Origin: Amphiscolops sp. MND2022
Lineage: Eukaryota
Assembly (NCBI GenBank): GCA_964187785.1
Contig: OZ076409.1
Coordinates: 44,084,001 to 44,148,000 of the forward strand
Length of the DNA: 64,000 nucleotides
Direction of reading: 5' to 3'
In this document: in pieces, positions 14,130 to 57,400 of the stretch
Position numbering within the stretch: the first letter of the stretch is position 1
How the letters are laid out: the number at the start of each line of letters is the position of its first letter
Program-made: the position numbers and the translations under genes
Notes under the pieces: model-generated
Seen by the model: only the letters and a program-made list of their open reading frames with translations
The model's database searches: none
What the model was told of the DNA's origin: nothing

Positions 14130-16436
14130 CCAGGAGCCTTGCCGAATTTAAAAGTTGTAGATTCTCTTGTGAACACTATCCCTTAGTGTCATGAAAGTTT
14201 TAGACCAGACACCCTTTTTAATTCAAACGTTGTTCACTTGAAAAGAGTTGCTAAAAAATCACGGATCTCTCTAGCTGAAAATTGACACCCAAAACTAAAC
14301 GTACTTGTGCAACCCCGTCCATTCATGCCTTTTGGTGCTTTTCGTTTTCCTCTCAAAGCAGTTTGACTGCCAAGTCGAACGACAAACTGGATTGAATTTT
14401 CTCAGAGCCTTAACAAAGCTTAAAATAGTGATTCTCGAGGAAAAAGTAACTTACGAACTTCTACTGTACTTCTTTGGTGCGAAAATAATTGCGCTAGAAT
14501 AGCCCAATGGTGGACTCCGTCCGATCGCGCTAGGCATTACTTTCCGCCGGTTGTCCGCAAAACTTGCCGGATATCATGTCTTCGAATCACGTCAAGCAAG
14601 GTATGGTAATCGACAAGTAGGTGGAAGCACAAAAAGAAATGCGGAATTGGCTTCACATGTTCCCTGTTCTCTGATAGAAAGCCCCCAGCGCAAAGAAATT
14701 GTTATCTTGAAAATTGACATTGAAAACGCTTTCAACTCGACAAACCGACCATTCATGCTCGAGAAATCTTTTGAAATACACCCTGAAGTTTGTAAATACT
14801 CACATTCGGCGTACAGTGAGTCAAGTTTCCTTTTTTACGTTGATTCGGTAGTCAAAGTTTCTGAACGGACCCAGTAAGCAGATCTTGAGTCTCCAGGTCT
14901 AATTTCGGATTCTATTAGGATAGATTTACAGTTTGGAGTCGAAAATAAACTTATGGTACCTCGACGATGGAATTTAAGTGATGATTATAAAACTGTTTTA
15001 AAAGACCTGAAAAAATTATTGAAGCTGAAAAAACGCTGGAACTCAAAATTAAACCCACAAAAAGTGAATCTTTTTGCTTGACGACATCAATGAAAAACGA
15101 CGATCGAAAGAAATAGCAATTTTTCAGAAAAACAGCACCGGGATTAAAACACCAAAGGAAGATGAACTTTCGTTCATCAGTTTCGGTTCACCGGTCGGCC
15201 CGAAATCGCAGGTAGACTTTTTGGAAAAAAATAATGAATTGAAAAAAGTAAATGGAACTGTTGATAAACTGGATCCGCATTATGGTTTTTTCATGTTGAG
15301 AAAGGCTTCAGTCTGCCAAAGTTGTTTTACTTCGTGAGAACCAGTTCAATCAACCAACTCTCTTGAAAAAATATGACAAAACCGTACGCGACGGGCTTTC
15401 CAAAATGTGTTACATGTTATTTGAGTACTCAGTGGGCTCTGCCTAGTAATATGTGTGGTCTTGGAGTTTCATCCGCAATCATTGTTAGCACTTTTCGCGT
15501 TTTTGGTGCGAGTGACTTTCTCACAACGACTTTCTCAGATACATTCGAAGATGTTTCGTTCACTATAGCATTTGAGAAATAGCTGAGCTTGACGAATGAA
15601 CAAGAAAGTCTTCTCGATGGAACCCAGAAAAATTAAACACGACCTGTATACGTCAAAACCGCCCAGGACTTAATTTCTCGAAAGGATGACAAACGTTAGA
15701 GAGTTTTTATTGCTCATCAAGACAAATTCGGGTCGCAGTGGTTTGAACGTTGTTCCTTGCAAGAACCTAGACCTGAAACATGATAATCAGAAGCTTCGGA
15801 TTGGCTTAGGTCTCGGAGTGAACATCTGTGTTGTTCATACGTGCCACTGTGATAAAAGAGTTGAACGTGACGGTTTACACGGTCTTTCTTGCACCAACAG
15901 TGCTGGTCGCTTCTCACGTCATGCTACTTTCAATTCTTCCATCAAGCAGACGTTCAGATCTCTCCACTTGCCTTCAATGTTCGAGCCGCGTGGACAGTGC
16001 CGAACTGATGGGAAACGCCCAGATGGTGTTCCAATGATTCCTTGAGAAATGGGTAAACAGCTGGTGTGGGATGTCACTGTTGTGGATGCTCAGTCGCCCA
16101 GTCGCCTGAATCAAGGCTCTTTATGTAACCCGGGAACCACCGCCACCGAGGCTGAAGCGCGTAAAATTGAGAAGTATCGCGAATTAATAGACAACGGATA
16201 CATATTTCAACCAGTGGCCTTGGAAGTACAGGGTTCTTTAGGCGACAGCAGTGAAATTTTCATCACGCGTCTCTGTAAAATGCTCTGTTGTTCGCACGGC
16301 GATCAACAAGTTGGCAGCTTTTTGAAGCAGCGGTTTTCAATGGTTCTTCAGATCGGCAATGCGGCCTGTGTTCTAGGAACTGTGAGCGACAGAGATGCGT
16401 TCGAATTTATTACATATAGTTTTTTTTAAAAAAAAA
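14130..16436 (+). mobile_element. CRE-like non-LTR retrotransposon (RT, CCHC finger, restriction-like endonuclease), decayed
   Basis: GGLRPIALGITFRRL, KIDIENAFNS, WYLDDG, CHC..GLHGLSC..GRFSRH, RPDG, WDVTVVD, AEARKIEKY, PVALEVQG; ends in an A-rich tail; many indels. Confidence 0.85.
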
Positions 16437-16489
16437 CCTCTATATAATTGCAGCTATAACAACCCAAGCTCGACATGATTGTGAGAAAA

Positions 16490-16570
16490 TAGCCATTACA
16501 GAACTCGAAACTGCATCTCAAGACAGATCTAGCTGGCAGTCAAGCGCCTTAACCCTTAGACCAAATGGCT
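16490..16570 (-). ncRNA. tRNA-like cassette in the 3' LTR (T-arm/B-box damaged)
   Basis: Same cloverleaf as the other copies but GCAGTTTCGAGTTCTGT in the T arm and GCC at the anticodon position. Confidence 0.7.
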
Positions 16571-16621
16571 TATTTAATCTCACCAATCATTCGGCTTATC
16601 ACTAACAACGCCGTTGTTATA

Positions 16622-16633
16622 TTATCCCCTTCT
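16622..16633 (-). promoter_or_regulatory. TRIM polypurine tract (second copy 16880-16891)
   Basis: AGAAGGGGATAA directly before the next LTR. Confidence 0.8.
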
Positions 16634-16697
16634 AACTGAAGCTGATTCCACACAGCTCCCAGTTGAACAAAACACAACTGGGGATTCAAGCCACTTA

Positions 16698-16711
16698 TGT
16701 AATGGCTACCA
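16698..16711 (-). promoter_or_regulatory. TRIM PBS (second copy 16956-16969)
   Basis: TGGTAGCCATTACA, 1 nt after the LTR end. Confidence 0.85.
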
Positions 16712-16747
16712 GTATAACAACCCAAGCTCGACATGATTGTGAGAAAA

Positions 16748-16828
16748 TAGCCATTACAGGACTCGAACCTGCATCTCAAGACAGATCTAGCTAGCAGTCA
16801 AGCGCCTTAACCCTTAGACCAAATGGCT
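16748..16828 (-). ncRNA. tRNA-like cassette in the middle LTR (81 nt)
   Basis: Acceptor AGCCATT/AATGGCT+A, D arm GTCT-AAGGGTTA-AGGC, variable stem ATCT/AGAT, T arm GCAGG-TTCGAGT-CCTGT, then TTTT. The anticodon stem is poorly paired. Confidence 0.8.
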
Positions 16829-17005
16829 TATTTAATCTCACCAATCATTCGACTTATCACTAACAACGCCGTTGTTATATTATCCCCTTCTAACTGAAGC
16901 TGATGCCACACAGCTCCCAGTTGAACACAACACAACTGGGGATTCAATCCACTTATGTAATGGCTACCAGTATAGCAACCGAAGCTCGACATGATTGTGA
17001 GAAAA

Positions 17006-17086
17006 TAGCCATTACAGGACTCGAACCTGCATCTCAAGACAGATCTAGCTAGCAGTCAAGCGCCTTAACCCTTAGACCAAATGGCT
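17006..17086 (-). ncRNA. tRNA-like cassette in the 5' LTR (81 nt)
   Basis: Same sequence as the 16748-16828 copy; A/B boxes intact; followed by TTTT. Confidence 0.8.
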
Positions 17087-17334
17087 TATTTAATCTCACC
17101 AATCATTCGACTTATCACCAACAACGCCGTTGTTATACAGCTCTAAAAAAACTTCTACTGGTCGACTGCGATAGTGGCTGGTATGAGTAAATTGTTAATT
17201 GTTATTTTTTGTTACTTGTCTACTGGGATAGTGGCTAGTATGGGGTTCCCTACGTTCGTTGCAGACCACGGGTAAGTGTCTTCTCCCCCCATCATGATGA
17301 CACATGGGTATTGATTGATGACGAAGACCCATGG

Positions 17335-18680: not shown

Positions 18681-18729
18681 GTGATAAATAGCCTAATTGT
18701 TGAGTAAATTTATTAAATAGTTTCCGGTT

Positions 18730-19509
18730 GTGATGACTAAAGCCTCTACTTCTTCATCCAAGTGTGGCAGTTGCAAGAGAATTGTCAAAGATGGGGACAA
18801 ATCTGGCATCGCATGTGACAACTGCTCTCTTTGGTACCATGGAGCTTGTGCAAGCCTGTCTGAGGAGGATGTCAAGTTGATGGGACGAATCAAAGGATGT
18901 CTCTGGCTCTGCGATTCCTGCCTCAATGATGACATCTTCAGCCCTGAAGCTAAGTACAATCATATTATTGATGCCAAAAATATGAAAAGTAGTATGAAAT
19001 CAATTCAAAATTCCTTAACTGAAATCCAATCGGCCCTCAGACCAACCCCTGAACCTGTCAAAAAACATGTAAATGAAGAGAGTCTATCTCGTGAGATAAT
19101 CATAAATGGTCTTGTTGAGGATAAAGGATCTTTTAAGTCGTCTTTCGAAGCTGACAACTCCAAACTACAGGAAGTATTCAACCATATGGATGAAAAAACT
19201 CTCAAAATAGAATCTACCCGCAGGTTAGGTCAACCCAAAGCTGATATGTCAAGACCAAGGCCGCTCCTCATTCGTTTTGCCACAGAATGGGATGCCAGGA
19301 AATGTCTTTCAAAATCCTACAGGCTGAAAAATTATCATGAACGAATATTCATATCACAATCTCTGAATGAAGAAGATCAAGCAACCAAACAGAAGATTTT
19401 GCAGAAACGGTATGAAATGATCAACAGTGACGGAGTACCACGAGATGAAATCAAAGTGAAAGGTCTTAAGCTCTTCAGAAACGGAACTGAAGTTACCTTC
19501 CAAAAGTGA
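18730..19509 (+). CDS. LINE ORF1 with N-terminal PHD finger
   Basis: CGSC..IACDNCSLWYHGAC..WLCDSC, then IIINGL and RLG..RPRPLLIRF, typical of CR1/L2 ORF1. Confidence 0.9.
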   Translation: MMTKASTSSSKCGSCKRIVKDGDKSGIACDNCSLWYHGACASLSEEDVKLMGRIKGCLWLCDSCLNDDIFSPEAKYNHIIDAKNMKSSMKSIQNSLTEIQSALRPTPEPVKKHVNEESLSREIIINGLVEDKGSFKSSFEADNSKLQEVFNHMDEKTLKIESTRRLGQPKADMSRPRPLLIRFATEWDARKCLSKSYRLKNYHERIFISQSLNEEDQATKQKILQKRYEMINSDGVPRDEIKVKGLKLFRNGTEVTFQK

Positions 19510-22316
19510 ATGCAGATGAAAATTTGCCTCTTGAATGCACAAAGTGTTACCAGTCTCCAGCAACGATTGAAACTACTCAACTTCTTAAGTTTGCACTCAC
19601 CTGATTTGGTTTTTGTCACTGAAACTTGGTTATACCCAGAAATCGAAGACTCTGAAGTCTGCCCATTGAAATGTAACTACTCAATCATTGCCAGACAAGA
19701 TCGCTCTGGTGGCGAACACGGCGGTGTCCTCGTTGCTGCCAAAAAGGATTTCTGTTTCAACTACTCTGACCTAACTCAGGAAATTGGACGCAATATGAAA
19801 ATTGACCAAATCAATGATTTTGCCGTCACTATTCCCATTACGACAATCCAGGGTTCTCACTTGTTCCTTTTAATTTACAATCCACCATCGACATCTCCAT
19901 ATCGAATCGAAGCGAACCTTTTGACTGATTGGATCTCCTCGTGTTATGCTAAGTTTGAAATCAATTATCTCAGCTCTTTCTCCATTTTAGGAGACCTCAA
20001 TCTGAATGATGTTTGCTGGGCAACTGTAACTGGTCAGAGCGACTATTCCAAAAGCTTCTTTGTTCAATCTCAAGCGATGAATCTCAATCCTTTAGATTTT
20101 GAGCTTACTCATAAGTCTGGTAGCACTCTGGATATAATTCTAACCTCACATTCCGAGCTATTCAATGTTCATGTTGACACTCATCTCTACTCTGATCATT
20201 ACCCTGTTTTTGCTTTGCTAAACCTTCCTATCCCCTATTCAGAGCCAGCTACTAATACATCAATTATGTATTCTTTGTCATCTTTTTCTAGTACTCTGTT
20301 CAACTCTCATGTATCCAATGGTTTCGACACACTACTGGCACTACCAAATTGCAGCTTCAGTGATGTTTCTATGAAAGCATATTTCTCATTGTGGCAACAA
20401 ACAGTGTTGTACGCTCGTACGCTCTAAATATGTCTTGCAAAATCAAAACTTCTCGCCGATCACAGTATCCGTATTTCTATTCCTCCCACTCAATTCACCT
20501 GATCAACAAACTTCGTACAGTTAAAAAATGTGACCACAGAAATGGTACCATTGAAAGGTTAAAACAAGAGATTAGTTTGTCAGTTGAATTAGACAAAACA
20601 GTCCTCCTTGAAAATCTATCTCCTGTCTCCATTCGTTCTTGCTTCAAGTTTTTACGCTCTTTCTCTTCGAATCGCTTGCCAAATCAAATGAACTGGAACA
20701 CACTGAAAGCAAACACCAGTAACGAAATTGCTAATCTGTTCAATAGTTATTTCAGCTCTGTCTTCCAGAAAAGTTTAGATATACCTTTGCAACCACCTGA
20801 ACTACCTACAATCCGTTTGGAAGATTTTACGATCAATCCCTCTGTAGTGGCAGATTTACTCTCGAAAGCTAAAACTTGTTCATTAAGCTCAGACCCTATT
20901 CCTATTTTTTTGTTGAACTCATGCCCAGATTTTCTGGCTCCGCTGGCCACTCAACTTTTTACTGTAGTAATAAAGGCAAGAAGATGGCCAAGTGAATGGA
21001 AATGCTCATATATAACACCGATATATAAGTCTGGAAACCCCGAAAGTGTGGAAAATTATTGGCACATCAGCATTTTACCACAGCTCTCACTTATTCTTGA
21101 AAAATTGCTCTTCCAACACATATACCCGCAAGTGCGATTATCAATCTGTGATGAACAACATGGTTTCACAAAGAAGCGCTCTCCTATTACCCAGCTCTTA
21201 CCCTATCTAGACGATTTGTACAACCAAAAAGATATTAACGCTTCTAGTTATGCTATCTACTTCGACTTTCGGAAGGCTTTCGATTTAGTTCCACATCATA
21301 TTCTTCTGAAAAAACTGGCAAATTTTAGCTTTGATGAAGATTTTTTGATCTTATTCAAGTCTTACTTATACTCAAGGTCACAACGAGTATCAATAAAAGG
21401 CTCCCTCTCCCAGATGGTGGATATTAATAGCGGTGTACCTCAAGGCAGTGTCCTCGGACCTCTTTTCTTCATTATTTTTATGAATGATCTTCCTGACAAA
21501 ATTGTCAATTCCTTATGCTATTTGTTTGCAGATGATAGTAAATTACTGTCTCTTCTGACCAAACCTGTTGTACAAAGGGATATTGATCACTTTACTGAAT
21601 GGGCTTACAGGAACAAAATGGAATATAACATGGACAAGTGCAAGTCAATCACTTTCGAGGAAAAATTAGCGTCGTCGGATCCTCTGTTTCTGAACGGTAA
21701 TATTGTCCTCACCGTTGACTCAATTGAAGACCTTGGAATCACCATTTCAAATACTATTACATGGGACGACCATATTCAAAAGAAATTGGTGGCTGCTAGA
21801 AAAGCTTATCATTTCTTGAAGCGCTCAATTCCTCATAATGTTAGTTCTTCCACGAAGCTTATGTACTACAGGTTGTGTGTTCAGAGTATTCTACTGTACG
21901 GATCCCAAATATGGTACCCCTCCATTAATTACCGACGGAAGTTGGAACTATTCAATACAGAATGTCTTTTTTGGGTAACTGGTTTACCAAAATTATTCAC
22001 AGCAGCTGGCAGCGCCAAATACCCTACCCCTATCATTCCATTTGGTCCTAAATGACATGGTCTTCCTCAACAAGGCCATAAATAACAAATACGACCTAAA
22101 TCTCAGCACCTTCATTTGTTTCAGCAACGATGCAAGGATCTCAGAAGTTCCAAATACCAACAACTCCTGCCAGTCAAAAGATGTCGCAAATTCTCCACGA
22201 GAGACTCCTTCTTCCAAAGAGTCTGTGACTACTCCAACTTCCTCGCCACAAAAGAGATTGACATTTTTGACCCAACTGAAAAATTTAAACATGAACTCAT
22301 GGCATACCTACGCAAT
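19510..22316 (+). pseudogene. LINE ORF2 (APE endonuclease + RT), about 3 frameshifts
   Basis: VTETWL, GGVL, GDLN, LDIIL, SDH; QHGF, DFRKAFD, GVPQGSVLGP, FADD. Frameshifts near 20420, 21988 and 22120. Confidence 0.9.
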
Positions 22317-22799
22317 GGTGGGGTATTTTTGGATCGAATTTTTGTGTGAGCGAAAAGCGAGATCGAAAATGGATCGAAGGTTTTGAGATCGAGTTTTTCC
22401 GGTTTTGCTTGGTTTTTGCTCCTGTAAAGTGTTTAAAAGCGTTTAAAATTATTTAGGTAGTTTTCCCCACCTAATATGGGATCATATACGGTGTATGCAC
22501 GCTCGCCCTCACCGTCGCAAGGACCAGCTCCCACTACGATCGCTTCGCGATCTCCGTTCCCGCTAGGTCTTTGCTCCTGTTCGACCTCGCTTAGCAAGAT
22601 GGGAACATAAGCGGCCCCAATGGGCCGCGGGGCATTAGAGGAAATGGGGGGCATATCCGACGGCCAAAAACAATGTTATTTGAAAACGCTAGGTATTTGA
22701 AAACATGGATTCGATCTCATTTTCTTTGACCATTTTACTTCGATCTCAGTGACAGATTGCATATCCGCGCAAATTCATTCGATCCAAACGCCCACCGCC
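22317..22799. mobile_element. MULE-like MITE inserted in the LINE 3' end (duplicate copy ~25250-25732)
   Basis: Imperfect TIRs GG..TTTGGATCGAAT and a 9-bp TSD CTACGCAAT (22308-16, 22800-08). LINE coding sequence resumes after it. Confidence 0.85.
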
Positions 22800-22989
22800 C
22801 TACGCAATCAAGTCCCAATGTTCAATTTAGACCGAAGCTGCTCCTGGTTTATAAAATGTCTCTGTAGCATCTGCCGCTCTTAGATTTGATCAACTCAGTT
22901 TGTAAAAGCCTACATTACAACTGCTTGATTGTTCCTTTATATAAAAAGGGAATTAAGTCTTCTAGTAGTAGTAGTAGACTTTATTGCTG

Positions 22990-23100
22990 AACACTACTTT
23001 TTCTAGATCAATATTTTTTGTTTCCAATAAGTCTGCCTGCGATTTCGGGCCGAGTGGTGAACCGATAGTGGTAACGTCATCTTTCGTCGGTGTTTCAATG
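22990..23100 (-). mobile_element. Fragment of the CRE-like LINE family (duplicate ~25923-26033)
   Basis: Reverse complement aligns to 15140-15250 (ggttcacc..cggcccgaaatcgcagg.agact). Confidence 0.7.
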
Positions 23101-23851
23101 ACATTAATGTTAATAGTTGTTTTTGTTAAAGGGAAATCAACCAGACAACGCGGTCTTCAGAAAAATTCACTTCCAATTTTACGTGGTCGAGGAAATCAAC
23201 CACCAAACAACGCTTTTTCTTCAGGCTGCCGAACAAGCTGAATCTTGTTAACAGGCTGCCGATTAAAAGTGATTTTGCAAAACCCGTTGGTCTAAAGAAC
23301 AGAATAATCAACTACTTTTGGCATTACTTCGAAACCAAGTACCGAGAAAACTCGAGTCAAACCTGGGGATTGTAATCTCAGCCAATCCACCACGCCAAAC
23401 TTATTTCCGGGAAAAACTTCCCCGGCTTTTTGCCAAATTTACAATAGAAAAGTGACATGGCTTTTGATTGATTGCGAAAATTCTTTGTATCTGATAGTGG
23501 AAAAAAGATAACAAAAAAAGAGAAAAAGGATTGAAAAACTTTCAAGAGTCTTTTTGTAATAGTTTTGCGTTACTGCGTATTGATATTTTCCAATAAATTT
23601 TTCAGCTGACTGAATTCAAATCGAGTTTGAATTTCAGCCATTAAATTGCACGGTGCCCAACGTGACTGCTGTTTGTAGCTTGCTCACACGTTCATTTACT
23701 CAGTCTTGCAGGAAATGTGGTTGTTAAGTTGAAGAGTTTCCTTCAAATAGCATGTGCAATTTTGTTCATTTTAAAAAACTCCCGGATGACATTGATACCA
23801 TTTTAGGTATCTTTTTCTTCTGTTGCATTTCAGGTTTCGTTTGAGTCACTA

Positions 23852-24181
23852 ATGGTCGAATCCATTGCTCCATTGAATGTGCATAGTCATGTATCCATTG
23901 AATTTCTTACTCAGGTTGTCGAGTTCATTTTCAACCGCAAAAGTTTCATTCGTGATGAGACTTTGCCCGAAAAAATCCTTGGAGCTTTACAAATGATCGA
24001 TAATTCACGTTTGAAAGAATTATTTGATCCAATATGTTCTGGCCTTCAAAGTTGTTTTGAGAACTTCGATTCATATTCACAGCCTATACAGTCATTAGCT
24101 CTGAGACTTTCTACAGTTGCGCTGAAAATAACGCCCTATCTAGACGATTTGTACAACCAAAAAGATATTAACGCTTTTTAG
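23852..24181 (+). pseudogene. Truncated BRAT1 5' copy fused to LINE RT
   Basis: First 94 aa identical to the 26787 ORF, then the RT-frame peptide PYLDDLYNQKDINA and a stop. Confidence 0.85.
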
Positions 24182-25249
24182 TTATGCTATCTACTTCGAC
24201 TTTCGGAAGGCTTTCGATTTAGTTCCACATCATATTCTTCTGAAAAAACTGGCAAATTTTAGCTTTGATGAAGATTTTTTGATCTTATTCAAGTCTTACT
24301 TATACTCAAGGTCACAACGAGTATCAATAAAAGGCTCCCTCTCCCAGATGGTGGATATTAATAGCGGTGTACCTCAAGGCAGTGTCCTCGGACCTCTTTT
24401 CTTCATTATTTTTATGAATGATCTTCCTGACAAAATTGTCAATTCCTTATGCTATTTGTTTGCAGATGATAGTAAATTACTGTCTCTTCTGACCAAACCT
24501 GTTGTACAAAGGGATATTGATCACTTTACTGAATGGGCTTACAGGAACAAAATGGAATATAACATGGACAAGTGCAAGTCAATCACTTTCGAGGAAAAAT
24601 TAGCGTCGTCGGATCCTCTGTTTCTGAACGGTAATATTGTCCTCACCGTTGACTCAATTGAAGACCTTGGAATCACCATTTCAAATACTATTACATGGGA
24701 CGACCATATTCAAAAGAAATTGGTGGCTGCTAGAAAAGCTTATCATTTCTTGAAGCTCTCAATTCCTCATAATGTTAGTTCTTCCACGAAGCTTATGTAC
24801 TACAGGTTGTGTGTTCAGAGTATTCTACTGTACGGATCCCAAATATGGTACCCCTCCATTAATTACCGACGGAAGTTGGAACTATTCAATACAGAGAGTC
24901 TTTTTTGGGTAACTGGTTTACAAAATTATTCACAGCAGCTGGCAGCGCCAAATACCCTACCCCTATCATTCCATTTGGTCCTAAATGACATGGTCTTCCT
25001 CAACAAGGCCATAAATAACAAATACGACCTAAATCTCAGCACCTTCATTTGTTTCAGCAACGATGCAAGGATCTCAGAAGTTCCAAATACCAACAACTCC
25101 TGCCAGTCAAAAGATGTCGCAAATTCTCCACGAGAGACTCCTTCTTCCAAAGAGTCTGTGACTACTCCAACTTCCTCGCCACAAAAGAGATTGACATTTT
25201 TGACCCAACTGAAAAATTTAAACATGAACTCATGGCATACCTACGCAAT
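24134..25249 (+). pseudogene. Duplicated 3' half of LINE RT
   Basis: ORF 24279-25319 carries GVPQGSVLGP and FADD; copy of 21201-22316. Confidence 0.9.
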
Positions 25250-26786
25250 GGTGGGGTATTTTTGGATCGAATTTTTGTGTGAGCGAAAAGCGAGATCGAA
25301 AATGGATCGAAGGTTTTGAGATCGAGTTTTTCCGGTTTTGCTAGGTTTTTGCTCCTGTAAAGTGTTTAAAAGCGTTTAAAATTTTTTAGGTAGTTTTCCC
25401 CACCTAATATGGGATCATATACGGTGTATGCACGCTCGCCCTCACCGTCGCAAGGACCAGCTCCCACTACGATCGCTTCGCGATCTCCGTTCCCGCTAGG
25501 TCTTTGCTCCTGTTCGACCTCGCTTAGCAAGATGGGAACATAGGCGGCCCCAAGGGGCCGCGGGGCATTAGAGGAAATGGGGGGCATATCCGACGGCCAA
25601 AAACATTGTTATTTGAAAACGCTAGGTATTTGAAAACATGGATTCGATCTCATTTTCTTTGACCATTTTACTTCGATCTCATTGACAGATTGCATATTCG
25701 CGCAAATTCATTCGATCCAAACGCCCACCGCCCTACGCAATCAAGTCCCAATGTTCAATTTAGACCGAAGCTGCTCCTGGTTTATAAAATGTCTCTGTAG
25801 CATCTGCCGCTCTTAGATTTGATCAACTCAGTTTGTAAAAGCCTACATTACAACTGCTTGATTGTTCCTTTATATAAAAAGGGAATTAAGTCTTCTAGTA
25901 GTAGTAGTAGACTTTATTGCTGAACACTACTTTTTCTAGATCAATATTTTTTGTTTCCAATAAGTCTGCCTGCGATTTCGGGCCGAGTGGTGAACCGATA
26001 GTGGTAACGTCATCTTTCGTCCGTGTTTCAATGACATTAATGTTAATAGTTGTTTTTGTTAAAGGGAAATCAACCAGACAACGCGGTCTTCAGAAAAATT
26101 CACTTCCAATTTTACGTGGTCGAGGAAATCAACCACCAAACAACGCTTTTTCTTCAGGCTGCCGAACAAGCTGAATCTTGTTAACAGGCTGCCGATTAAA
26201 AGTGATTTTGCAAAACCCGTTGGTCTAAAGAACAGAATAATCAACTACTTTTGGCATTACTTCGAAACCAAGTACCGAGAAAACTCGAGTCAAACCTGTA
26301 TATTGTAATCTCAGCCAATCCACCACGCCAAACTCACTTCCGGGAAAAACTTCCCCGGCTTTTTGCCAAATTTACAATAATAAAAGTGACATGGCTTTTG
26401 ATTGATTGCGAAAATTCTTTGTATCTGATAGTGGAAAAAAGTTAACAAAAAAAAGAGAAAAAGGATTGAAAAACTTTCAAGAGTCTTTTTGTAATAGTTT
26501 TGCGTTACTGCGTATTGATATTTTCCGATAAATTTTTCAGCTGACTGAATTCAAATCGAGTTTGAATTTCAGCCATTAAATTGCACGGTGCCCAACGTGA
26601 CTGCTGTTTGTAGCTTGCTCACACGTTCATTTACTCAGTCTTGCAGGAAATGTGGTTGTTAAGTTGAAGAGTTTCCTTCAAACAGCATGTGCAATTTTGT
26701 TCATTTTAAAAAACTCCCGGATGACATTGATACCATTTTAGGTATCTTTTTCTTCTGTTGCATTTCAGGTTTCGTTTGAGTCACTA

Positions 26787-34250: not shown

Positions 34251-34475
34251 AATGGAAATTGAATGCTGGAATTGAAAACAACGTTTTCCGCATTGTTCTT
34301 AGCCAATTTTGTCGTTGCACTGTATATATTCATAATCTGTAAACCTTCAAAAATTGTTCCGAAGTTGCTCCGTTTTTGATGCTCACATCTTGCAACATGT
34401 TGAAGGAACATGTTGTTTCAAGGTTTTGTTAGATACTTAGTGCTTTTCAGATGAATTGTGTCTTGACTTCAAGTA

Positions 34476-35153
34476 ATGGGAAACGTGTTTGGAAAAAGTA
34501 AAAAGAAGCAAAATAGCCGTGTGACTGATAGCGATTGGGCTATTTTGGAACTAAAAAATGCAAGAGACCAATTGAACAAGTACAAAAAGAAAATTCAAGG
34601 AGACCTAGAAAAGGAACGCGTCGTTGCTAAAACTTTATTGCAAGAAGGTCGCACTGATAGAGCCAAAGCAGTACTACGAAAGAAAAGATACAAAGAATCG
34701 CTGATAGAAAAAACTGAAGGTCAATTGGAAAACTTGGACACTATGGTCAATGAAATAGAAATGGCGAATGTACAAATCAAAGTTGTGGATGGCATAAAAG
34801 CCGGAAAAGAGGCTCTTGCGAAACTGCAACAGGTGCTAAAGTTGGATGACGTTGAACAACTGATGGACGACACAGATGAAGCTGTTAAATTACAGCAACA
34901 AATTGTGGACACATTAGCCGGATCTTTGAGTCCGGAAGACGAACAAGAAGCTCTTGATGAACTGGAAGCCTTGCTCGCTGCCGATGACGAGCAACAAAAA
35001 CAAGGTGTCATATCAAACGGTGCTGTTGGCGACGATGGGATGCCACAGCTACCGGATGTACCTTCCGGAGACCTGCCTACACCATCACAAACTGCGGAAT
35101 CGCATAAATCAAGCGAAAACAGCAAGCGTAGAGCAGAAGCCATTCCAGGCTGA
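34476..35153 (+). CDS. CHMP6: ESCRT-III subunit CHMP6/VPS20, intronless CDS
   Basis: MGNVFGK myristoylation start, VTDSDWAILELK..RDQL Snf7 fold, MIM2-like LPDVPSGDLP. Confidence 0.95.
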   Translation: MGNVFGKSKKKQNSRVTDSDWAILELKNARDQLNKYKKKIQGDLEKERVVAKTLLQEGRTDRAKAVLRKKRYKESLIEKTEGQLENLDTMVNEIEMANVQIKVVDGIKAGKEALAKLQQVLKLDDVEQLMDDTDEAVKLQQQIVDTLAGSLSPEDEQEALDELEALLAADDEQQKQGVISNGAVGDDGMPQLPDVPSGDLPTPSQTAESHKSSENSKRRAEAIPG

Positions 35154-38683: not shown

Positions 38684-46042
<7,359 letters not shown>

Positions 46043-49710: not shown

Positions 49711-52705
49711 TCAATCTCTGGCGCCAACATCGCCGGCCCTGTTTTCTCTCTGAAAACAATCGTCCAATAGTGGCGCCAGCTTCACAGCGGGTCGAACGAA
49801 TATCCCATTTGAAGTCTGTATCTTTGCTGATCGAACCACTCCATCACTGCCCGGGAAGACATCCAAAACTCTAGCCATTTGATTTTTGCACCGCTTCACT
49901 GACTCATCAATGACCCACACCAGATCACCTACTTGGAGGGCTCGCACGTCATTGCTCCCCCATTTAGGTCGCACGTTCCATTGCGGCAGATAATCGCGAG
50001 CCCATCTTTTCCATATCATTTCATGATATGCTTGAGACGCTTTGTAGAGCTTTCGACAGTTCACGTATCTTGATGCATCCGGAAATAATGGCTCCGAAAT
50101 TGCAGGTCTGCCCAGTAGAAAATGGTTAGGCGTTAATGCCTCTAGATCCTCTGGATCATCACTGACAGGCGTCAAAGGCCTTGAATTTAGCGTCTGTTCA
50201 ACCAGACACATCGTTGTGGTGAGTACTGGTAGAGTCAAGCGTCGACTTCCCAAGATAGCAATCATAGACTTTTTGCAACTTCTCACAAGTCGCTCCCATA
50301 TACCACCGAAATGTGGCGCTCCGGGGGGATTGAATTGCCAAACGACGCGCTGCTTTGCAAGATTTTCCGAAATAGCATCTTGATTCCATTCACTGAAGCA
50401 TTCTTTGAACTCCCGTGCAGCTCCAACAAAGTTAGTGCCATTGTCACTGATGATTTTCAATGGCTTGCCTCTCCTTGCCATGAATCGCGTGATTGCCATC
50501 ATGCACGCGTCTGTGTCCAAGCCGTTCACGACTTCGATGTGAACTGCTCTAGTGACTAGACAAGTGAAGAGACAACACCAGTACTTGACTGTCTTCCTGA
50601 AGAATGTCACTTCGAAGGGTCCAAAGTAGTCGACCCCTGTGTTGCTGAAAGGGTACACGTTCTGCTGCACTCGCTCCTTAGGCAAGTCTGCCATGTGAGG
50701 TTGAAACGGTTGTGAAGCAGCTTTCCGACATTGTACACAGCTGTACTTGATGCGTCTCAAAGCGTTTCTGAGTCCAGTTATCCAGTATTGTTGCTGGAGT
50801 ATGTTTCTGACATGCTCAGTTCCTTCATGATGATTGTCCACGTGAGCTTGTCTCACGAGAAGAACAATCGCAGGGTGTTTAGCTGAAAGAAGAATTGGAT
50901 GCTTCGTCTCATCAGGAAGCATTGACTTGTTCAGCCGTCCTTTCAGTCTAATTGTGCCCTGCTTGTCTAGAAATGGACACAATTTAGCCAAGTCATTCTT
51001 GGCAGGCTTTCCACTACTTTTGATGAGCTTTTCATACAGCTCAGGGTAGCTCTCCCGCTGTGAGAGTTGCAGGATCGTCAATTCTGCTGAATTCAGCTCA
51101 TCGGGCATCAAGGGTCCTCTTCTTTTGTTTTTGATTCTTCGACAGTAGACAAGCATATTGAGTAATCGCTTGAATTGGCTGAATCTAGTCCAATCAAGAA
51201 TACTCTCTCTGGAAGCTATAGTCCATGTTTGTTCGTCCTCGTGTTCGACTAACTGCTGCTCTGGCCAGTTCTCCGGTTCATCTTGCAACCAGGCCGGCCC
51301 GTGTAGCCACTCACTTTCTCGCAACTGCTCAAGAGTGACACCTCGAGTTCCAATATCCGCAGGGTTCATGGAGCCTTTCACATGTCGCCACTCGTCTACA
51401 GTTGATTGATCAAGTATTTCCCCGACTCTGTTAGCGACGAACACCTGTTGTTTCTTATGTGCTGCATGAAGCCACCTCAGCACTGTCATTGAATCCGTCC
51501 AATGGGTCACTGAATCCATTTTGATGTCGTGTTCCTTCTCTATCAGCTGCCTAAGTCTCACCGAGTACAATGCTGCTTGCAGCTCCAGCTTGGGTATAGT
51601 TTGTTGTTTCATTGGGGCTATTCGGCACTTTCCCGTCACGAATGAAACTTCTGTTCCGCTTGGTGTAAGAGCCCTTATGTACGCAACAATGCACATGGAT
51701 TCCAAAGAGGCGTCTGAAAAGATGTGCAAGTCCACTTTATCAAACTGGCTCATGAAGTATCTGCGTCTCAGTGGAGAACTTGGCAATTGATTCAACTCGT
51801 TAGCCCATGTTAGGAAAACTGTCTGATCATCAATGTCAATTTCTTGATCCCATTGTTGACCTGTCTTCGCCCAGATCGTCTTCAGCAACATCCTCATTCT
51901 CATTGTGAATGGTGCAAATAGTCCAAGTGGGTCGAAAACAGAGGCTACGAAAGAGAGTACTGCTCTCTGAGTGATTTTCACTGGCACTTCTTTGTCAGCT
52001 CCACGGCAAACTTCAAGTTCGTCTGCTTCTACTTTCCATTGAAGTCCCAAAAGCGAAGAGGTATGCGGCTCTGCCTCAAAGGTCTTATTGACTGCGTCTG
52101 ATCGATCTTTTTCAGGTATCGAATTACATACAGCTTCACTGTTGCAGATCCATTTCAACAAGTTAAAACCTCCGAGCCTCAATGTCTCTCTCACGTCTTG
52201 GTACACAAAACGTGCTTCTTCTTCAGTCTCTACTGATTTTGCAAAGTCGTCCATGTAGAAGTTCCTTTGGATGATTTTTGCCGCCATGGGGTGGTCCTTT
52301 TCGTTGTCCTTCGCATTTCTCTGCAGCGCAAAATTAGCACAAGTTGGGCTACTCTTTGCTCCAAAAATATGCCGGGTGTATTCATACACGGAGATCGGAT
52401 CACTCGGGTTATTCCTCCATAAGAAACGTAACACCTTGCAGTCTTGCGGTGGCACTTTAACTTGCAAGAACATCGCTTCTATGTCAGCTGTAAGGGCAAT
52501 TGGATGCTCCCGGAACCTGAAGATGATTCCCACCAAGTTTTGAAGGAGGTCAGGTCCCGTGAGAAGCATATCGTTCAGAGAAGTTCCTCGAAATTTCGCT
52601 GCAGCATTGCAAACCCTTCGGACTTTCTCTGGTTTGTGAGGGTTTATCACGGGATGGTGAGGCACGTACCACTGAGTCTCATCCTTCGTTTCTCCAAGTT
52701 CTTCA
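49711..52705 (-). CDS. pol: RT, RNase H, integrase (intact frame, native N-terminus missing)
   Basis: WYVPHHPV, ADIEAMF, FGAKSSP, YMDD, FSDAS, IPKLEL, HHCC, GVDYFGP, SDNGTNF, GGIWE. Confidence 0.93.
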
Positions 52706-54476
52706 AGTAGTTCATCTTGACACTGTCCGGTACTCCAGCTTGATCCACAGTTGCTAGAAACTGCCCAGACCACTCAGGCCACTCGAGAGGATCTCCAGCG
52801 AACTTGTCCAAAACCAGTTTCGGTAGTTTCATTGGTGACATTACTGCTGGAAGAGCTCCGAATGATGTTGTTGCCAACGGTTGATTACGTTGCCATTGTT
52901 TTAATGGGCTGTTGCTCGCAGCGGGCGTTGAGATTGTCTGAGGTACAAACATCTTCTCGGGGTTGAACTTAATTGTTTTCCTTTTGACGTCTGTTTGTTT
53001 TCCGGGCAACGATGGGTCCTTTGAAACATACTCTTGGTCGTCATTGAAGTCGTATGATATGCCTTGTTCTTCACTCTTCACATATAGGTTCGGTTGTCTT
53101 TGGTCCTCGTTCGAGTGATTGAAAAGGTTCCTCGACGACTCCAACCAATCTTTTGTAGTCGCGGCTTTCTCAGTCTCAGAATGATCCATGCTGCAAATGC
53201 TAGATCTCGATGATGCTCGCTCCATTATTTCCAACTTCTTCATTTTCAGATGAAGCTGTTTCTTGCGGGTCATCTCTTCCAATTCTAGTTCCTCCTTTGC
53301 TATTGCCAATTCCATCTCTCGTTGCTTCCGTTTCAACTCAATCTCCTGCTGCTTCTTTCTGATCTCAGCTTCTGTTTGTTCTTCGAAGATTTGTGCTTCA
53401 AGTTCCACACGTCTCCGAGACGATCGAGACGAAGGAATTGATCCCAATTGTTTTCTAGCGCTGCCCATGATATCCTTTGGCTCTTCTGTGATCGGGAATG
53501 CCTTTTGAGGGGATACAACGCTGACTTCAGCTGCCCCTACATTAGGGTTAGGTTCCTCCGTGGGAACGTCCGCTGCTGGAGTTCCTCCAATGGCTCCAGC
53601 ATTTCCTTGCCCGGCAACGCGCTCAGCGTCTTCATTTTCATTGTCTGACAGTATCATTGTTGTCTCCACATTTTGGACGCGTTCTTCGCCTTCCCTCGAT
53701 GCCACCGGTAAGTCGAAATTTTGATGAACCATTTGACTTTGTTTATCTCTGGCATTTTGCTCCTCGCGTTCGTTCAAGTAGCTCAGCCAGCCAAGTAGAT
53801 CTTTCTCCTGCGCACGCTCATCAGCTTCCTCGATTTGTAAAGTGAGCAAAAGAGGTTTGATGAGTTGCCGCTTCTGCTGTTGAAGCTTTCTATGTTCCTC
53901 TAGTCTATGAGTAAACCGTTGAAGGAGTTGACGTATCTTTGACACTCTGTCCTTTTGTCCGATCAAAGCATTTATCTCTCGTTTCAACTCCGCTTGGGAT
54001 TGAAGAATGTCTCGTTGTTTGTCTTCCAACTTCCCATATTCCACAATAGATGCTTTGGTTATGAGGAGCTCTGATTTCTTGACAATCCATTTGAGGGCAG
54101 CGTTGTTTGTCGTCCATAGCTCCACTGCTTTGTCCAATCCAAAAAGAATTCGTTTTTGATGAGCTAAAAGCTCTTCAAGTGCCTTTGTTTTCAACATTGA
54201 TGTGATCGAGGTCACCAAGTCCATGAACTTCTGCTTTTCAGTTGAGAATTCACTGTAGAATTTCCCCAAGACGACCAGTTTGGTATCTGGAGTCCAGTCA
54301 GTTTTCTTGCTGAATTCATCTGTTGAGACAATCACATTCAAGTTTTTGAAGCTATTATCTAGGGCATCAACGCCAGCTTTCCATTTGGCAAGATCACCTG
54401 ACTTCTTCAGGTCCTTCAACCTTTTGTCGTCCTTGAACCATGTTATATCGAGCTCCGGTATTACGTTCGAAGCCAT
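52647..54476 (-). CDS. gag, C-terminally truncated by deletion
   Basis: MASNVIPE start; KLPKLVLDKFAGDPLEWPEW..KMNYLK, then out-of-frame pol sequence. Confidence 0.85.
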   Translation of the reverse strand: MASNVIPELDITWFKDDKRLKDLKKSGDLAKWKAGVDALDNSFKNLNVIVSTDEFSKKTDWTPDTKLVVLGKFYSEFSTEKQKFMDLVTSITSMLKTKALEELLAHQKRILFGLDKAVELWTTNNAALKWIVKKSELLITKASIVEYGKLEDKQRDILQSQAELKREINALIGQKDRVSKIRQLLQRFTHRLEEHRKLQQQKRQLIKPLLLTLQIEEADERAQEKDLLGWLSYLNEREEQNARDKQSQMVHQNFDLPVASREGEERVQNVETTMILSDNENEDAERVAGQGNAGAIGGTPAADVPTEEPNPNVGAAEVSVVSPQKAFPITEEPKDIMGSARKQLGSIPSSRSSRRRVELEAQIFEEQTEAEIRKKQQEIELKRKQREMELAIAKEELELEEMTRKKQLHLKMKKLEIMERASSRSSICSMDHSETEKAATTKDWLESSRNLFNHSNEDQRQPNLYVKSEEQGISYDFNDDQEYVSKDPSLPGKQTDVKRKTIKFNPEKMFVPQTISTPAASNSPLKQWQRNQPLATTSFGALPAVMSPMKLPKLVLDKFAGDPLEWPEWSGQFLATVDQAGVPDSVKMNYLKNLEKRRMRLSGTCLTIP

Positions 54477-57400
54477 CTTCTTTCTCGATTTCCAATCCAA
54501 GTTCCGAATCAAATAGTGTCCGGGTCGGCGGACCAAATGTAACGGCCGCTCAAATCTTACAGCGGAATTGAGCTTTCTGCCGGTCCCTGATCCTTCCCAC
54601 TTCTTCGGCCAAAAGCAGGAACAAACTTTCTAAAGGACTGTATCTGTTCAATGAGTTCTCAACTGCTAGCGGCTTCGTGCTCCTCAACACCAGACTCTTC
54701 AGGCTAAGCAACACTTCGATCCCAATCCCTCTTTTGACTGGAAATCTGCTTCACCTCTTGTTGTCCGGAGGTCGTACGCTCAACCACAGCAACTGATCGT
54801 CCTCAACGGATTGTTTCCACCCAAGCCTCCAAAGAGGGTTGTCGTTTCAATTGAATAGCTCTTACGATGAGCTTTTAATCTCGCTACTACGATGAGCGAT
54901 AATAGAACGCTTTCCTAGATCTTAGACCTACTACGCCTAATGAAGCTATTTCAAGAGTACTTTTCTGATTGATTTGGACTCCTAAAACAGCTGATCGTTT
55001 ATTTTTTCGATCGTTGAGTAGTGCAATGCTACCCTCCCAGTCACAACCTGTCTAAACCGGAACCGGGGTAGCTACTCAACAGCTGTCAAAGACATTTAAG
55101 TTTCAAGAATATTTTAATTAGCGTTCTGAATATGGTATCAAAATTGGTCAAATTTATACTCTACTCAGCGGATGTACAGTTGATAACCTTTAAAATCACA
55201 GGATATTCAAATAACAAAGTTACATAATATCACTTTTTCCATCACGTTTTCGGACCTCTCACACCTCCAATTTGGAAATTCCTTCCAAAATTTTCCATAA
55301 AGAGGTAAATCTATCAATGAAACTGCAATATGAACGGCAATTTGACCGATAGGTTGGATAGATAACATTTGCCTCAAATCACGCCACCGTTCTCGTTCGA
55401 ATAGAATCAAAGTACAATGAACTTTGGGACAAACATTAAGCGCCATTACCAAATTGATCATTTGACTTCAACTAATCACAACAGCACAGGTTAGTTAATT
55501 ACGCTTTTAAGTTTCGAGTGTTTTACAAAGTTTTGTAACTCAAGATTTCCAGCTAATATGTTCAAGTTGGTTTCTCAATCTCTGGCGCCAACACTGTGGT
55601 TGGAGCTTTTTGAATGTTAAATATTTGACAGAAAAGGTCGAGGAAAAATTTTACGTTTCAAGTAAAGTTTCGAAAATTGCGCGACTTTTGTCCGATATCT
55701 TTTCACAATCGGTAGCTACACGTTTCAATCTGATCCAATGGGCTTTCTGGTTGAAGTAAGTTTTCGGAAAGGGTCCAAAATTCTGACTATGTTGTCGAAA
55801 ATTGGAAAAGGTCGGAAATTTTGGCATCTTTGTTGTCAAATTCGAGGAAGTTTATCCCACTTTCTTTCACAAATTGCGTTTTGAATACCCCATTGTTTCA
55901 GCGTTTAGGTCAATAGATGTTCTGTTCTACAAACTTTTGCGTGGTTTGACCAAAAATTGAGATTAAATGTGTCAAAAAACGTGCTTTTTTGTCGTTTTTT
56001 GGATTTGGGGTGTTTCTAACGCCAATTCCAACAAACGTTTGCAGTTATAACTTCAAACGCCCTCTGGATACCAGAATTTGTCTTTGCTGAATCCTTTGAA
56101 CCATTTTGTGCAAGGAATTTGCTCGAAAATCACACAGAAAAGTCCATGAAAACATTCAGTGTTTTTCGCATATTTCGGATCATGAACTTTTCAACCATGA
56201 AAGTGCAAAGTTCTCTTTGAAAAGCGAGTCGCGGGCCTAGTTATACCATCTGAAGCTTTTTGGATCTTTTATCCTACCAAAAACTTCCCTGTCTCTCTCA
56301 AAAAATTACTGGAAATGTCAGAAATCAACAAAAATAACATTTTCGACTTTTTGCGGTCTTTTTTGAGCCACTTTCCAACCGAAGTCTGCAAATATGTCCT
56401 AAGAAAAGCTTACGTGCATTTGAGTTCAGACGTTGTTGAAAGTTTTCTAACATTCTGACTCCAAAACAATTCAGAAAGTAAGAGTTGCCTATAAGAAAGC
56501 ACATAAGTTGCTTGAAAACGTGAGATGTTCAAATTTTCGACTCATTTGGAGTCATTCTGAAGTGTTTTTTTAAAGCAAAACGCTGCAACGTTCTCGTCAA
56601 AAAGGGTACTGCATAGCTTGTTCTTTCAATTTTGAACGTTTTAAAACTTCGAGCCCATGAAATGTCTGGGCTTTTTCGACAATTTCTGGGTCGATTTGAT
56701 GCCTTTTTTCTATAACACTTTTTATCTCTCGACAAAAGCATTCTGAGATAACGAATTTGTCCCTTGTTCAACAGTTTCAACATTATAATTCACAAAGTTG
56801 ATCAAAATTCCGACAAAAATTGATTTAAAGTGGTGAAAATTGAAAATTTTTGCTAAGTTTGTTTTTTTTTCAGTGTCAATCCGAGACTTATTATTTCTGC
56901 GATATTATTATGAATTTTGTATGAATCAATACAAGGAGTATCCTCCAGGAATAAATTAAATTTAATGTCCCATCATAGTGGCAGGGCATAGGAGTCAGTT
57001 TAGAAACATCGTGCACTTGACTTGGAGATATATGCTAAGGTAATTGCAAGAGCGTGAAGGGACATCATCTGAGTTGTCAAACTCTCCAAGAGTTGGAGTC
57101 ACATTCTTGGTATCGATATAAGAAATAATGCCACATGTATTGGATAATTCGAGCTTTGAGGTTAACAGCGTTGAAGAAATCTACCGCAGTTGCAATCCGA
57201 TTTGCAGTGGCTCGTGCCCTGTACCAAAAGCACTGTTCTTCTTTTCTGGTTCGTGGTTTCTCGATAATGAACCGAGTTCGCAAGCCTAGGCGCGTAGGGT
57301 AAATGCTGTTTGGCTCATTCGTAAGTGAGGAAACGAGAGTAGTTAGGGTCACAACCACCATTGATAATTTTTGAGAGCATCATGAGGTCCAGTAACTGCA

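Follow-up and report, generated by a model that had tools for sequence, protein, structure and literature searches.

A Helenus-type miniature LTR retrotransposon whose primer binding site matches the tRNA-like unit of its own LTR

The closest described systems

To our knowledge, LTR elements are primed by the end of a host tRNA, by a host half-tRNA or, in the case of Tf1, by the 5' end of their own mRNA. Helenus elements (TRIMp3) are the closest relatives of the element described here. Section 3.6 of the paper that defines them (Kojima 2024, PMC10886601) states that in no Helenus was the LTR's tRNA-like unit found to be complementary to its primer binding site (PBS), adding that this unit does not prime, and every animal PBS shown in its Fig. 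S2 is assigned to a host tRNA. According to the same source, animal Helenus elements are mobilised by an autonomous Gypsy element sharing their PBS, Pol III transcription is unvalidated for Helenus generally, and acoels are absent from the table of Helenus hosts (PMC10886601).

Other systems share single features with our element. Cassandra and Ajax, as presented in that paper, likewise carry a Pol III small-RNA cassette in their LTRs and are transcribed from LTR to LTR, but the cassette is derived from 5S, has a promoter role only, and the primer is a host tRNA (PMC10886601). The primers of Tf1 and Tj1 also come from the element's own LTR sequence and are complementary to the PBS; however, they are the cut-off 5' end of the mRNA, whereas the unit considered here is internal, tRNA-shaped and would need a non-templated CCA (PMC4600332). 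Priming of Ty3 and Ty1 by initiator tRNA (iMet) likewise combines a short PBS with extra T-arm contacts, but that primer is encoded by the host and its sequence is not inherited with the element (PMC5371799, PMC7472051).

By Kojima's naming rule and judged by its sequence features, the element is a Helenus in a variant form. It is a TRIM of less than 1000 bp (unit 425 bp, LTR 167 bp, internal part 91 bp) with LTRs and without coding sequence, and in both of its families a PBS follows the 5' LTR and a polypurine tract (PPT) precedes the 3' LTR. The kinship to Helenus, which the initial annotation mentions as a TRIM with tRNA-like LTRs, is borne out by the element's size, the tRNA-like LTR with its boxes, the PBS and PPT, and the target-site duplication (TSD); animal Helenus elements are also reported to have 4-bp TSDs, tandem arrays and solo LTRs (PMC10886601), like those found here. 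In Helenus as described there the PBS fits a host tRNA, whereas here it matches the element's own unit over 14 nt and co-varies with it, and pattern searches of the genome revealed no fitting host tRNA. The host-tRNA match is a reported property and not part of the naming rule, and the element is therefore filed as a Helenus variant. The 14-nt self-match contradicts the explicit negative statement of the defining paper (PMC10886601, Section 3.6). In addition, young copies end in TA where Helenus ends in CA, and a sequence search of the Helenus supplement with the family's PBS and LTR start found neither (PMC10886601).

The element belongs to a known kind and probably has a new way of priming. 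The initial annotation knew of no description of such a self-matched primer/PBS pair, and our search of the literature, which took in few subscription journals and no Repbase Reports, found no element-encoded tRNA-like primer; what PMC4600332, PMC4558846 and PMC13570524 say on priming concerns Tf1-type or host-tRNA priming only.

The copy in the window and its tRNA-like unit

The window is a stretch of 64,000 nucleotides of the Amphiscolops sp. MND2022 genome (contig OZ076409.1). The element copy occupies positions 17137-16455 of its minus strand and is a tandem of 683 bp with the structure LTR-I-LTR-I-LTR; by sequence comparison within the window, each of its three LTRs measures 167 bp and each of the two internal parts 91 bp. 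The initial annotation had the place, the minus-strand layout, the PBS and PPT as well as the 4-bp TSD right, but described two LTRs and missed the middle one. The LTRs differ from one another at just 3, 4 and 7 of 167 sites, and the copy is therefore young. Their termini are TA...TA, not TG...CA, and each purine tract ends 3 nt upstream of the next LTR. The features, in the order of the element, are as follows.

17138..17141, minus strand: target-site duplication, 5' copy (4 bp), identical to 16451-16454
16971..17137, minus strand: LTR 1 (167 bp, TA...TA termini), by sequence comparison
17006..17086, minus strand: tRNA-like unit of LTR 1, 81 nt (Rfam 46.4 bits, ARAGORN), showing both Pol III boxes (A and B), an acceptor stem of 7 bp, the T arm and A73; candidate primer gene
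17002..17005, minus strand: T4 run right after the discriminator, seen in the sequence; candidate leaky Pol III terminator
16956..16969, minus strand: PBS 1 (14 nt), one base past the LTR, complementary to CCA plus unit positions 73-63
16883..16891, minus strand: polypurine tract 1, 3 nt before LTR 2, from the sequence
16713..16879, minus strand: LTR 2, the middle LTR common to both halves of the tandem
16748..16828, minus strand: tRNA-like unit of LTR 2, with the same sequence as the unit in LTR 1 (Rfam, ARAGORN)
16787..16794, also 17045-17052, minus strand: perfect 8-nt palindrome replacing the anticodon loop; candidate dimerisation site
16744..16747, minus strand: T4 run after tRNA-like unit 2, from the sequence
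16698..16711, minus strand: PBS 2 (14 nt), 14 Watson-Crick pairs, -22.3 kcal/mol
16683..16692, minus strand: 10-nt block, 5 nt past the PBS, predicted to be able to pair with the T loop of the unit, with three G-U pairs
16625..16633, minus strand: polypurine tract 2, from the sequence
16455..16621, minus strand: LTR 3, by sequence comparison
16490..16570, minus strand: tRNA-like unit of LTR 3, with three private changes, two of them in the T arm (Rfam 37.3 bits)
16451..16454, minus strand: target-site duplication, 3' copy, from the sequence

The three 81-nt units score 46.4, 46.4 and 37.3 bits with the Rfam tRNA model (RF00005; cut-off 29 bits), with A and B boxes aligned, and ARAGORN calls two of the three without giving an isotype. 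In the unit of this family (family 1), the acceptor stem (7 bp), the D arm, a 4-bp variable arm and the T arm are paired, and four T directly follow the discriminator A, in agreement with the 81-nt cloverleaf followed by TTTT of the initial annotation. The exception is the anticodon stem, which in family 1 and in a second family described below has non-standard pairs and the wrong loop length, so that the unit does not qualify as a functional tRNA gene. The tRNA mimics mascRNA and MEN-beta also have a defective anticodon arm, yet they are processed by RNase P, RNase Z and the CCA-adding enzyme; they are a precedent for maturation, but are made from Pol II lncRNAs and have no known RT-primer role. 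From the A and B boxes we infer that the unit could be used as a Pol III promoter. An 8-nt palindrome lies at the anticodon loop of the family-1 unit, the family-2 unit and the host iMet alike; in the window copy it is broken by one change in the unit of LTR 3. As palindromes in the primer tRNA of Ty3 aid dimerisation (PMC5371799), we take the palindrome of both units as a lead to a possible dimerisation site.

Self-match and co-variation in two families

At both PBSs of the window copy (16969-16956 and 16711-16698) the sequence is perfectly complementary to the unit's final 11 nt with CCA attached, confirming what the initial annotation had read at this locus. Paired with its own PBS, the CCA-tailed RNA forms 14 contiguous Watson-Crick pairs, with energies of -22.3 kcal/mol for family 1 and -22.8 kcal/mol for family 2; the host iMet pairs over 7 nt (family 1) and 6 nt (family 2), in helices of -9.8 and -6.4 kcal/mol, and the unit of one family pairs with the PBS of the other over 6 nt. 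The PBS of both families starts with TGG, one base past the LTR. At the place where CCA is expected after the unit, the genome encodes TTT (family 1) or AAT (family 2), so that any CCA end would have to be put on by an enzyme. There is hence no encoded partner for the first three bases of the PBS, which is an argument for CCA and against Tf1-type priming. Genome-wide, the PBS 14-mer occurs 144 times, versus 2 for the reversed control, and hence the self-match is not due to chance; 28 of the 30 places that were fetched belong to family 1.

The T-loop-pairing block that follows the PBS in family 1 has a similar counterpart after the family-2 PBS. With this block, the predicted duplex with the element's own unit reaches -35 kcal/mol, and that with host tRNA-Val also gains (-24). 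The block may thus help unrelated tRNAs as well, and we regard it as a lead only. At the acceptor end, the final three bases are still those of the host iMet in both families, so that a primer of this kind may imitate a terminus with which the RT of a helper is familiar.

When the 1.07-Gb genome was searched at the DNA level, with 39 of the 621 candidates being scored, at least 52 matches to family 1 came up, most of which are units of 425 bp with 96-98% identity, and tandem arrays are among them; the copy number is known as a lower bound, at least 144 exact PBSs. The flanks were perfect at 4 bp in 15 of 23 pairs and at 5 bp in 0 of 23, three of these 23 rows being inner array junctions rather than true flanks. 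As read from the sequences, this shows that family 1 has moved by integrase-type insertion with 4-bp TSDs. Across 92 family-1 LTRs the acceptor stem was no more conserved than the rest of the LTR, a comparison that mostly reflects change after insertion and has little power, and the inherited changes across 34 family-1 insertions are too few for testing selection.

Several further observations were made on family 1. One array (G000 C11:55289693-55296051, L004-L015) contains 25 family-1 LTRs with one 4-bp TSD flanking all of them, and smaller arrays elsewhere contain 3 and 6 LTRs. The first base of the unit is changed from A to G, which still pairs with U72, in the 5' LTR alone in five of the 34 insertions, in the 3' LTR alone in one and in all LTRs in one; this pattern may mean that two RNAs were mixed, or may mark the U3/R border. 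In some older copies (L019, L021, L086 and L091, and for family 2 those at C8:2391922 and C8:32452896) some ends are TG/CA instead of TA; these changes hit both termini, so that the terminal inverted repeat is kept.

Family 2 was first met as two solo LTRs among the matches of a host-tRNA pattern search (the last-4-nt pattern described below). Its LTR is about 163 bp long and its full-length units have a period of about 250 bp; a search in which 40 of 279 candidates were scored gave at least 46 matches, which are 76-84% identical to an old copy. The two families are homologous in their termini, T arm, U5, PBS position and PPT. The family-2 unit measures 71 nt, is quite different in the middle and scores 29-47 bits as a tRNA in five of the six LTR loci given. 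No T4 run directly follows it, which we count against the own-primer reading. Acceptor pairs 3:70, 4:69, 5:68 and 7:66 are different Watson-Crick pairs in family 2 than in family 1, and the same four PBS positions are altered to match, so that both stem strands and the PBS have changed in step and the self-match is again 14 nt. Other PBS types sought in this clade were variants of family 1 only, and a search for further families with a generic pattern returned only a tRNA-Val array and chance matches.

The same relation is seen within family 2. A search in which unit positions 63-65 and PBS positions 12-14 were left free gave 10 matches, nine of which are family 2 and the tenth is not. Position 64 of the unit and position 13 of the PBS are complementary in all nine family-2 copies (G-C in three, T-A in four, A-T in two; shuffle p 0.0007), and in pooled family-2 copies position 64 is matched in 20 of 22 that could be scored (20 of 24 when two degenerate PBSs are included), against a shuffled mean of 9.3; because the copies are kin, the pattern may represent two independent changes only, and p-values are overstated. 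Acceptor/PBS co-variation across subfamilies, which the initial annotation had named as a check on its proposal, is therefore present both between the two families and within one of them. Matching at the level of alleles favours a primer made by the copy itself or by a close relative of it.

Elsewhere in positions 63-73, some 20 private changes (counted by eye) are not mirrored in the PBS, which indicates that matching arises in replicating lineages and not through repair after insertion. Retroviruses copy the primer into the PBS, but Ty1 and Ty3, as treated in PMC7472051 and PMC5371799, do not; direct copying is therefore not assured as the route to co-variation, and selection may produce it.

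Not every acceptor change is matched. Position 64 is mismatched in 2 of the 22 copies; in two neighbouring copies (L020) an acceptor change common to both LTRs is accompanied by an unchanged PBS, and the same holds for a family-1 variant at position 67 in the sole copy seen whole. The array at L021 has changes at 4 of the 14 sites of its PBS, two of which still permit G-U pairing; this also counts against the own-primer reading. A chimera in which a family-1 LTR is followed by a family-2 PBS is present at G000 C13:52955435 and suggests, from its sequence, that the families share particles and recombine; a genome search for the reverse combination, a family-2 LTR joined to a family-1 PBS, found none. 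The L020, position-67 and L021 cases and the chimera fit priming in trans with some tolerance, and not strict inheritance in cis. The family-1 tandem at L021 (G000 C5:2967001-2970678) is old and has a full family-2 element about 700 bp away, and C11:9111724 has two of the four L021 PBS changes. Two near-identical places (G000 C6:56992259 and C7:63595035) combine a motif resembling a T loop with an LTR end like that of the family and a site that begins with TGG but has no self-match.

A host tRNA with the same 3' end, which the initial annotation had regarded as counter-evidence, was sought genome-wide with patterns consisting of a T loop followed by an element-like 3' end, each with its own blind spot and together not equal to a tRNAscan catalogue; for neither family was one found. 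The last-8-nt pattern, for which the flank had to differ from that of the element at one site, gave 29 matches and no host tRNA: 26 are T arms of the family by their matched text (six confirmed in fetched loci) and the other three are not tRNAs. With the last-4-nt pattern, 27 matches were obtained, of which 10 are family-like and 12 were fetched and have no ARAGORN gene (five were not fetched). The last-6-nt pattern gave 74 matches versus 36 for its control, without any tandem array. Its single multi-copy class, a dispersed repeat of about 26 copies with an end like that of family 1, proved to be no tRNA in L180, the copy that was fetched. For the family-2 end there were six matches, five of them family 2 and one due to chance, and a second family-2 end pattern gave 23 matches versus 42 for its control; neither revealed a host gene.

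Host tRNA genes are conspicuous in this genome as tandem arrays of a single type, namely iMet, Val(AAC) and Lys(TTT); the host iMet, found via its anticodon arm, has 386 pattern matches genome-wide. A genome-wide search with the Rfam tRNA model, in which 63 of 117,979 candidates were scored and which is not a catalogue, returned mainly the Lys arrays. The arrays lie at G000 C8:62.05 Mb, C2:56.37-56.54 Mb and C7:5.2-5.3 Mb. Loci L100, L102, L106 and L108 are decayed, tRNA-derived and SINE-like, and ARAGORN finds no gene in them. A long multi-copy element that carries either PBS, or that shares the PPT and the LTR start, would be a candidate helper; DNA pattern searches revealed none. A scan of metagenomes for the layout of T loop, iMet-like end and PBS produced 57 stretches, all of which are bacterial tRNAs or chance matches; their self-match is at most 9 nt, 7 of which are fixed by the pattern.

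A private primer and its alternatives

We put the probability that the LTR cassette serves as both Pol III promoter and primer gene at roughly three in four, judging from the sequence relations described above. According to this model, Pol III would start just upstream of the tRNA-like unit. Short transcripts, which would either stop at the T run or derive from solo or 3' LTRs, would fold as a tRNA, be trimmed by RNase P and RNase Z and receive CCA to become a private primer, whereas transcripts reading through to the next LTR would be the genomic RNA. In the latter, the PBS would pair with the 3' acceptor strand in cis and unfold the 5' tRNA shape, which may shield it from RNase P and RNase Z. 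Within the particle of a helper of the Gypsy type, the CCA end would anneal over 14 nt, optionally extended by the T-loop block, and prime minus-strand DNA. The primer could be supplied either by a small RNA on its own or by a genomic RNA whose 3' end has been matured. That the unit RNA primes at all is our reading of the self-match.

The proposal of the initial annotation, a private primer freeing the element from host tRNA, gains support in its first half from the co-variation and the lack of a host tRNA in the searches; its second half goes too far, since the element would still need the tRNA-processing enzymes of the host and the RT and integrase of a helper. Slightly less firmly, we consider it probable that an element-encoded tRNA mimic, matured by the host and tailed with CCA, constitutes a further mode of LTR priming: an evolvable lock and key separating families that use one helper, with a cassette that switches by leaky termination and cis folding and with solo LTRs acting as primer genes in trans. 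If so, this would give a reason why the small-RNA cassette stays whole in the LTR instead of being reduced to promoter boxes, and the parasite of a parasite would stop competing with its helper for primer. It might also escape silencing by host 3' tRNA fragments, and would amount to an orthogonal primer/PBS pair of natural origin, available in two sequence solutions and three alleles.

The main rival, which we hold to be unlikely, is that the acceptor strand only folds back to cover the PBS or to hide the transcript from tRNA-processing enzymes, while the host iMet primes through 6-7 nt. Co-variation is expected in this case too, and in both families the first bases of the PBS (7 and 6 nt) are indeed complementary to the end of iMet. 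Moreover, a short PBS can suffice when there are extra contacts, as described for the 6 nt of HIV-1 (PMC7472051) and the bipartite PBS of Ty3 (PMC5371799), but the iMet helices are weak here, and no second, bipartite iMet-binding site rose above shuffled controls. The predicted folds point both ways: the acceptor stem is closed in short transcripts, and in PBS-containing transcripts the PBS pairs with the 3' acceptor strand in cis at P 0.81-0.99 for 9 of the 12 lengths, a result also compatible with a role other than priming, whereas P is 0.08 in one length and 0 in both full 343-nt family-1 transcripts. Folding back leaves unexplained why the 5' acceptor strand changes in step and why family 2 has lost one of the seven iMet pairs, and it needs a separate cause for the CCA-joined antisense copy in L091/L092 (see below). 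Cis pairing is equally what self-priming of the Tf1 kind would use, with the 5' part of the transcript folding onto the PBS and being cut after position 73, without CCA addition. Self-priming by a 5' RNA piece is known for Tf1 and has been proposed for Tj1 (PMC4600332). We consider it very improbable here: in the Tf1/sushi type the PBS is fully complementary to the RNA 5' end, whereas the complement in our element is at unit positions 63-73, some 70 nt internal to the inferred start site; the first three PBS bases could form at most two G-U pairs in family 1 and not a single one in family 2; and the element would have no need of an intact acceptor stem.

Slightly less probable again is that the element is an ordinary Helenus whose PBS matches a host tRNA that was missed, the LTR unit being a decayed copy of that tRNA with a promoter role only. 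This is the rule for all Helenus described in Section 3.6 of PMC10886601, the host patterns had built-in gaps, the Rfam search scored 63 of 117,979 candidates, and the assembly may be incomplete. Nevertheless, the pattern searches of both ends gave family copies, chance matches and non-tRNA repeats in a genome whose host tRNAs form large arrays, and two tRNAs would have to have been missed, one of them with three alleles that track the element's subfamilies. Least probable of all, to the point that we give it hardly any weight, is a match without function, kept up by template switching between the inverted 11-nt matches that homogenises PBS and acceptor strand. Rearrangements at the 11-nt match exist (L081, possibly L091), but the 20 or so private changes are unmirrored, a primer would be required all the same, and nothing would account for the joint change of both stem strands and the PBS.

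Possible primer footprints, rearrangements and neighbourhood

In L091 and L092, which represent one event duplicated 62 kb apart in an old copy, TGG plus 36 nt antisense to the 3' end of the unit are inserted between LTR and PBS; the order is LTR, one base, the 39-nt antisense stretch, a few bases ending in an LTR terminus, the normal PBS and the internal part. Such an insert is possibly the trace expected when plus-strand synthesis runs into a CCA-tailed primer; HIV-1 RT runs on into a primer lacking its stop modifications, as reported in PMC8599865. Alternatively, template switching at the inverted 11-nt match could have produced it. Such switches do happen there, as is shown by L081, an inversion whose joint lies precisely where the PBS and the acceptor strand match over 11 nt. 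A search for the junction gave eight matches versus none for the control: L091, L092, L074 (with two mismatches) and five ordinary LTRs. No read-through footprint was found for family 2 (three matches versus three for the control).

L081, L076/L077 and G000 C6:35795274 are fold-back or inversion derivatives of family 1. Outside the family, L074 (G000 C1:102686337) matches the antisense of the CCA-tailed unit at 22 of 24 bases, and L178/L179 over 15 contiguous bases; the flanks of these non-family places of the PBS 14-mer are not homologous to each other, and the sequences are possibly captured primer cDNA, or due to chance. At L171 (G000 C4:22969600-22969730), about 60 nt of host iMet plus CCA lie between 33-bp inverted repeats resembling an LTR end, with no nearby template for the iMet stretch; judging by this structure, L171 is likely the read-through footprint of another, iMet-primed LTR element.

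The long reading frames around the element copy, at 2-2575 and 49714-54629 on the minus strand and at 14503-16426, 18721-25316, 34467-35150 and 41279-46039 on the plus strand, resemble, in their translations, a BEL/Pao gag-pol, a decayed non-LTR RT beside the insertion, duplicated LINE fragments, an intronless CHMP6 gene and PAPS-synthase-like exons. Of these, the CHMP6 gene was confirmed; it places the host among the acoels, since its closest named proteins are those of Convolutriloba (67%) and Symsagittifera (63%).
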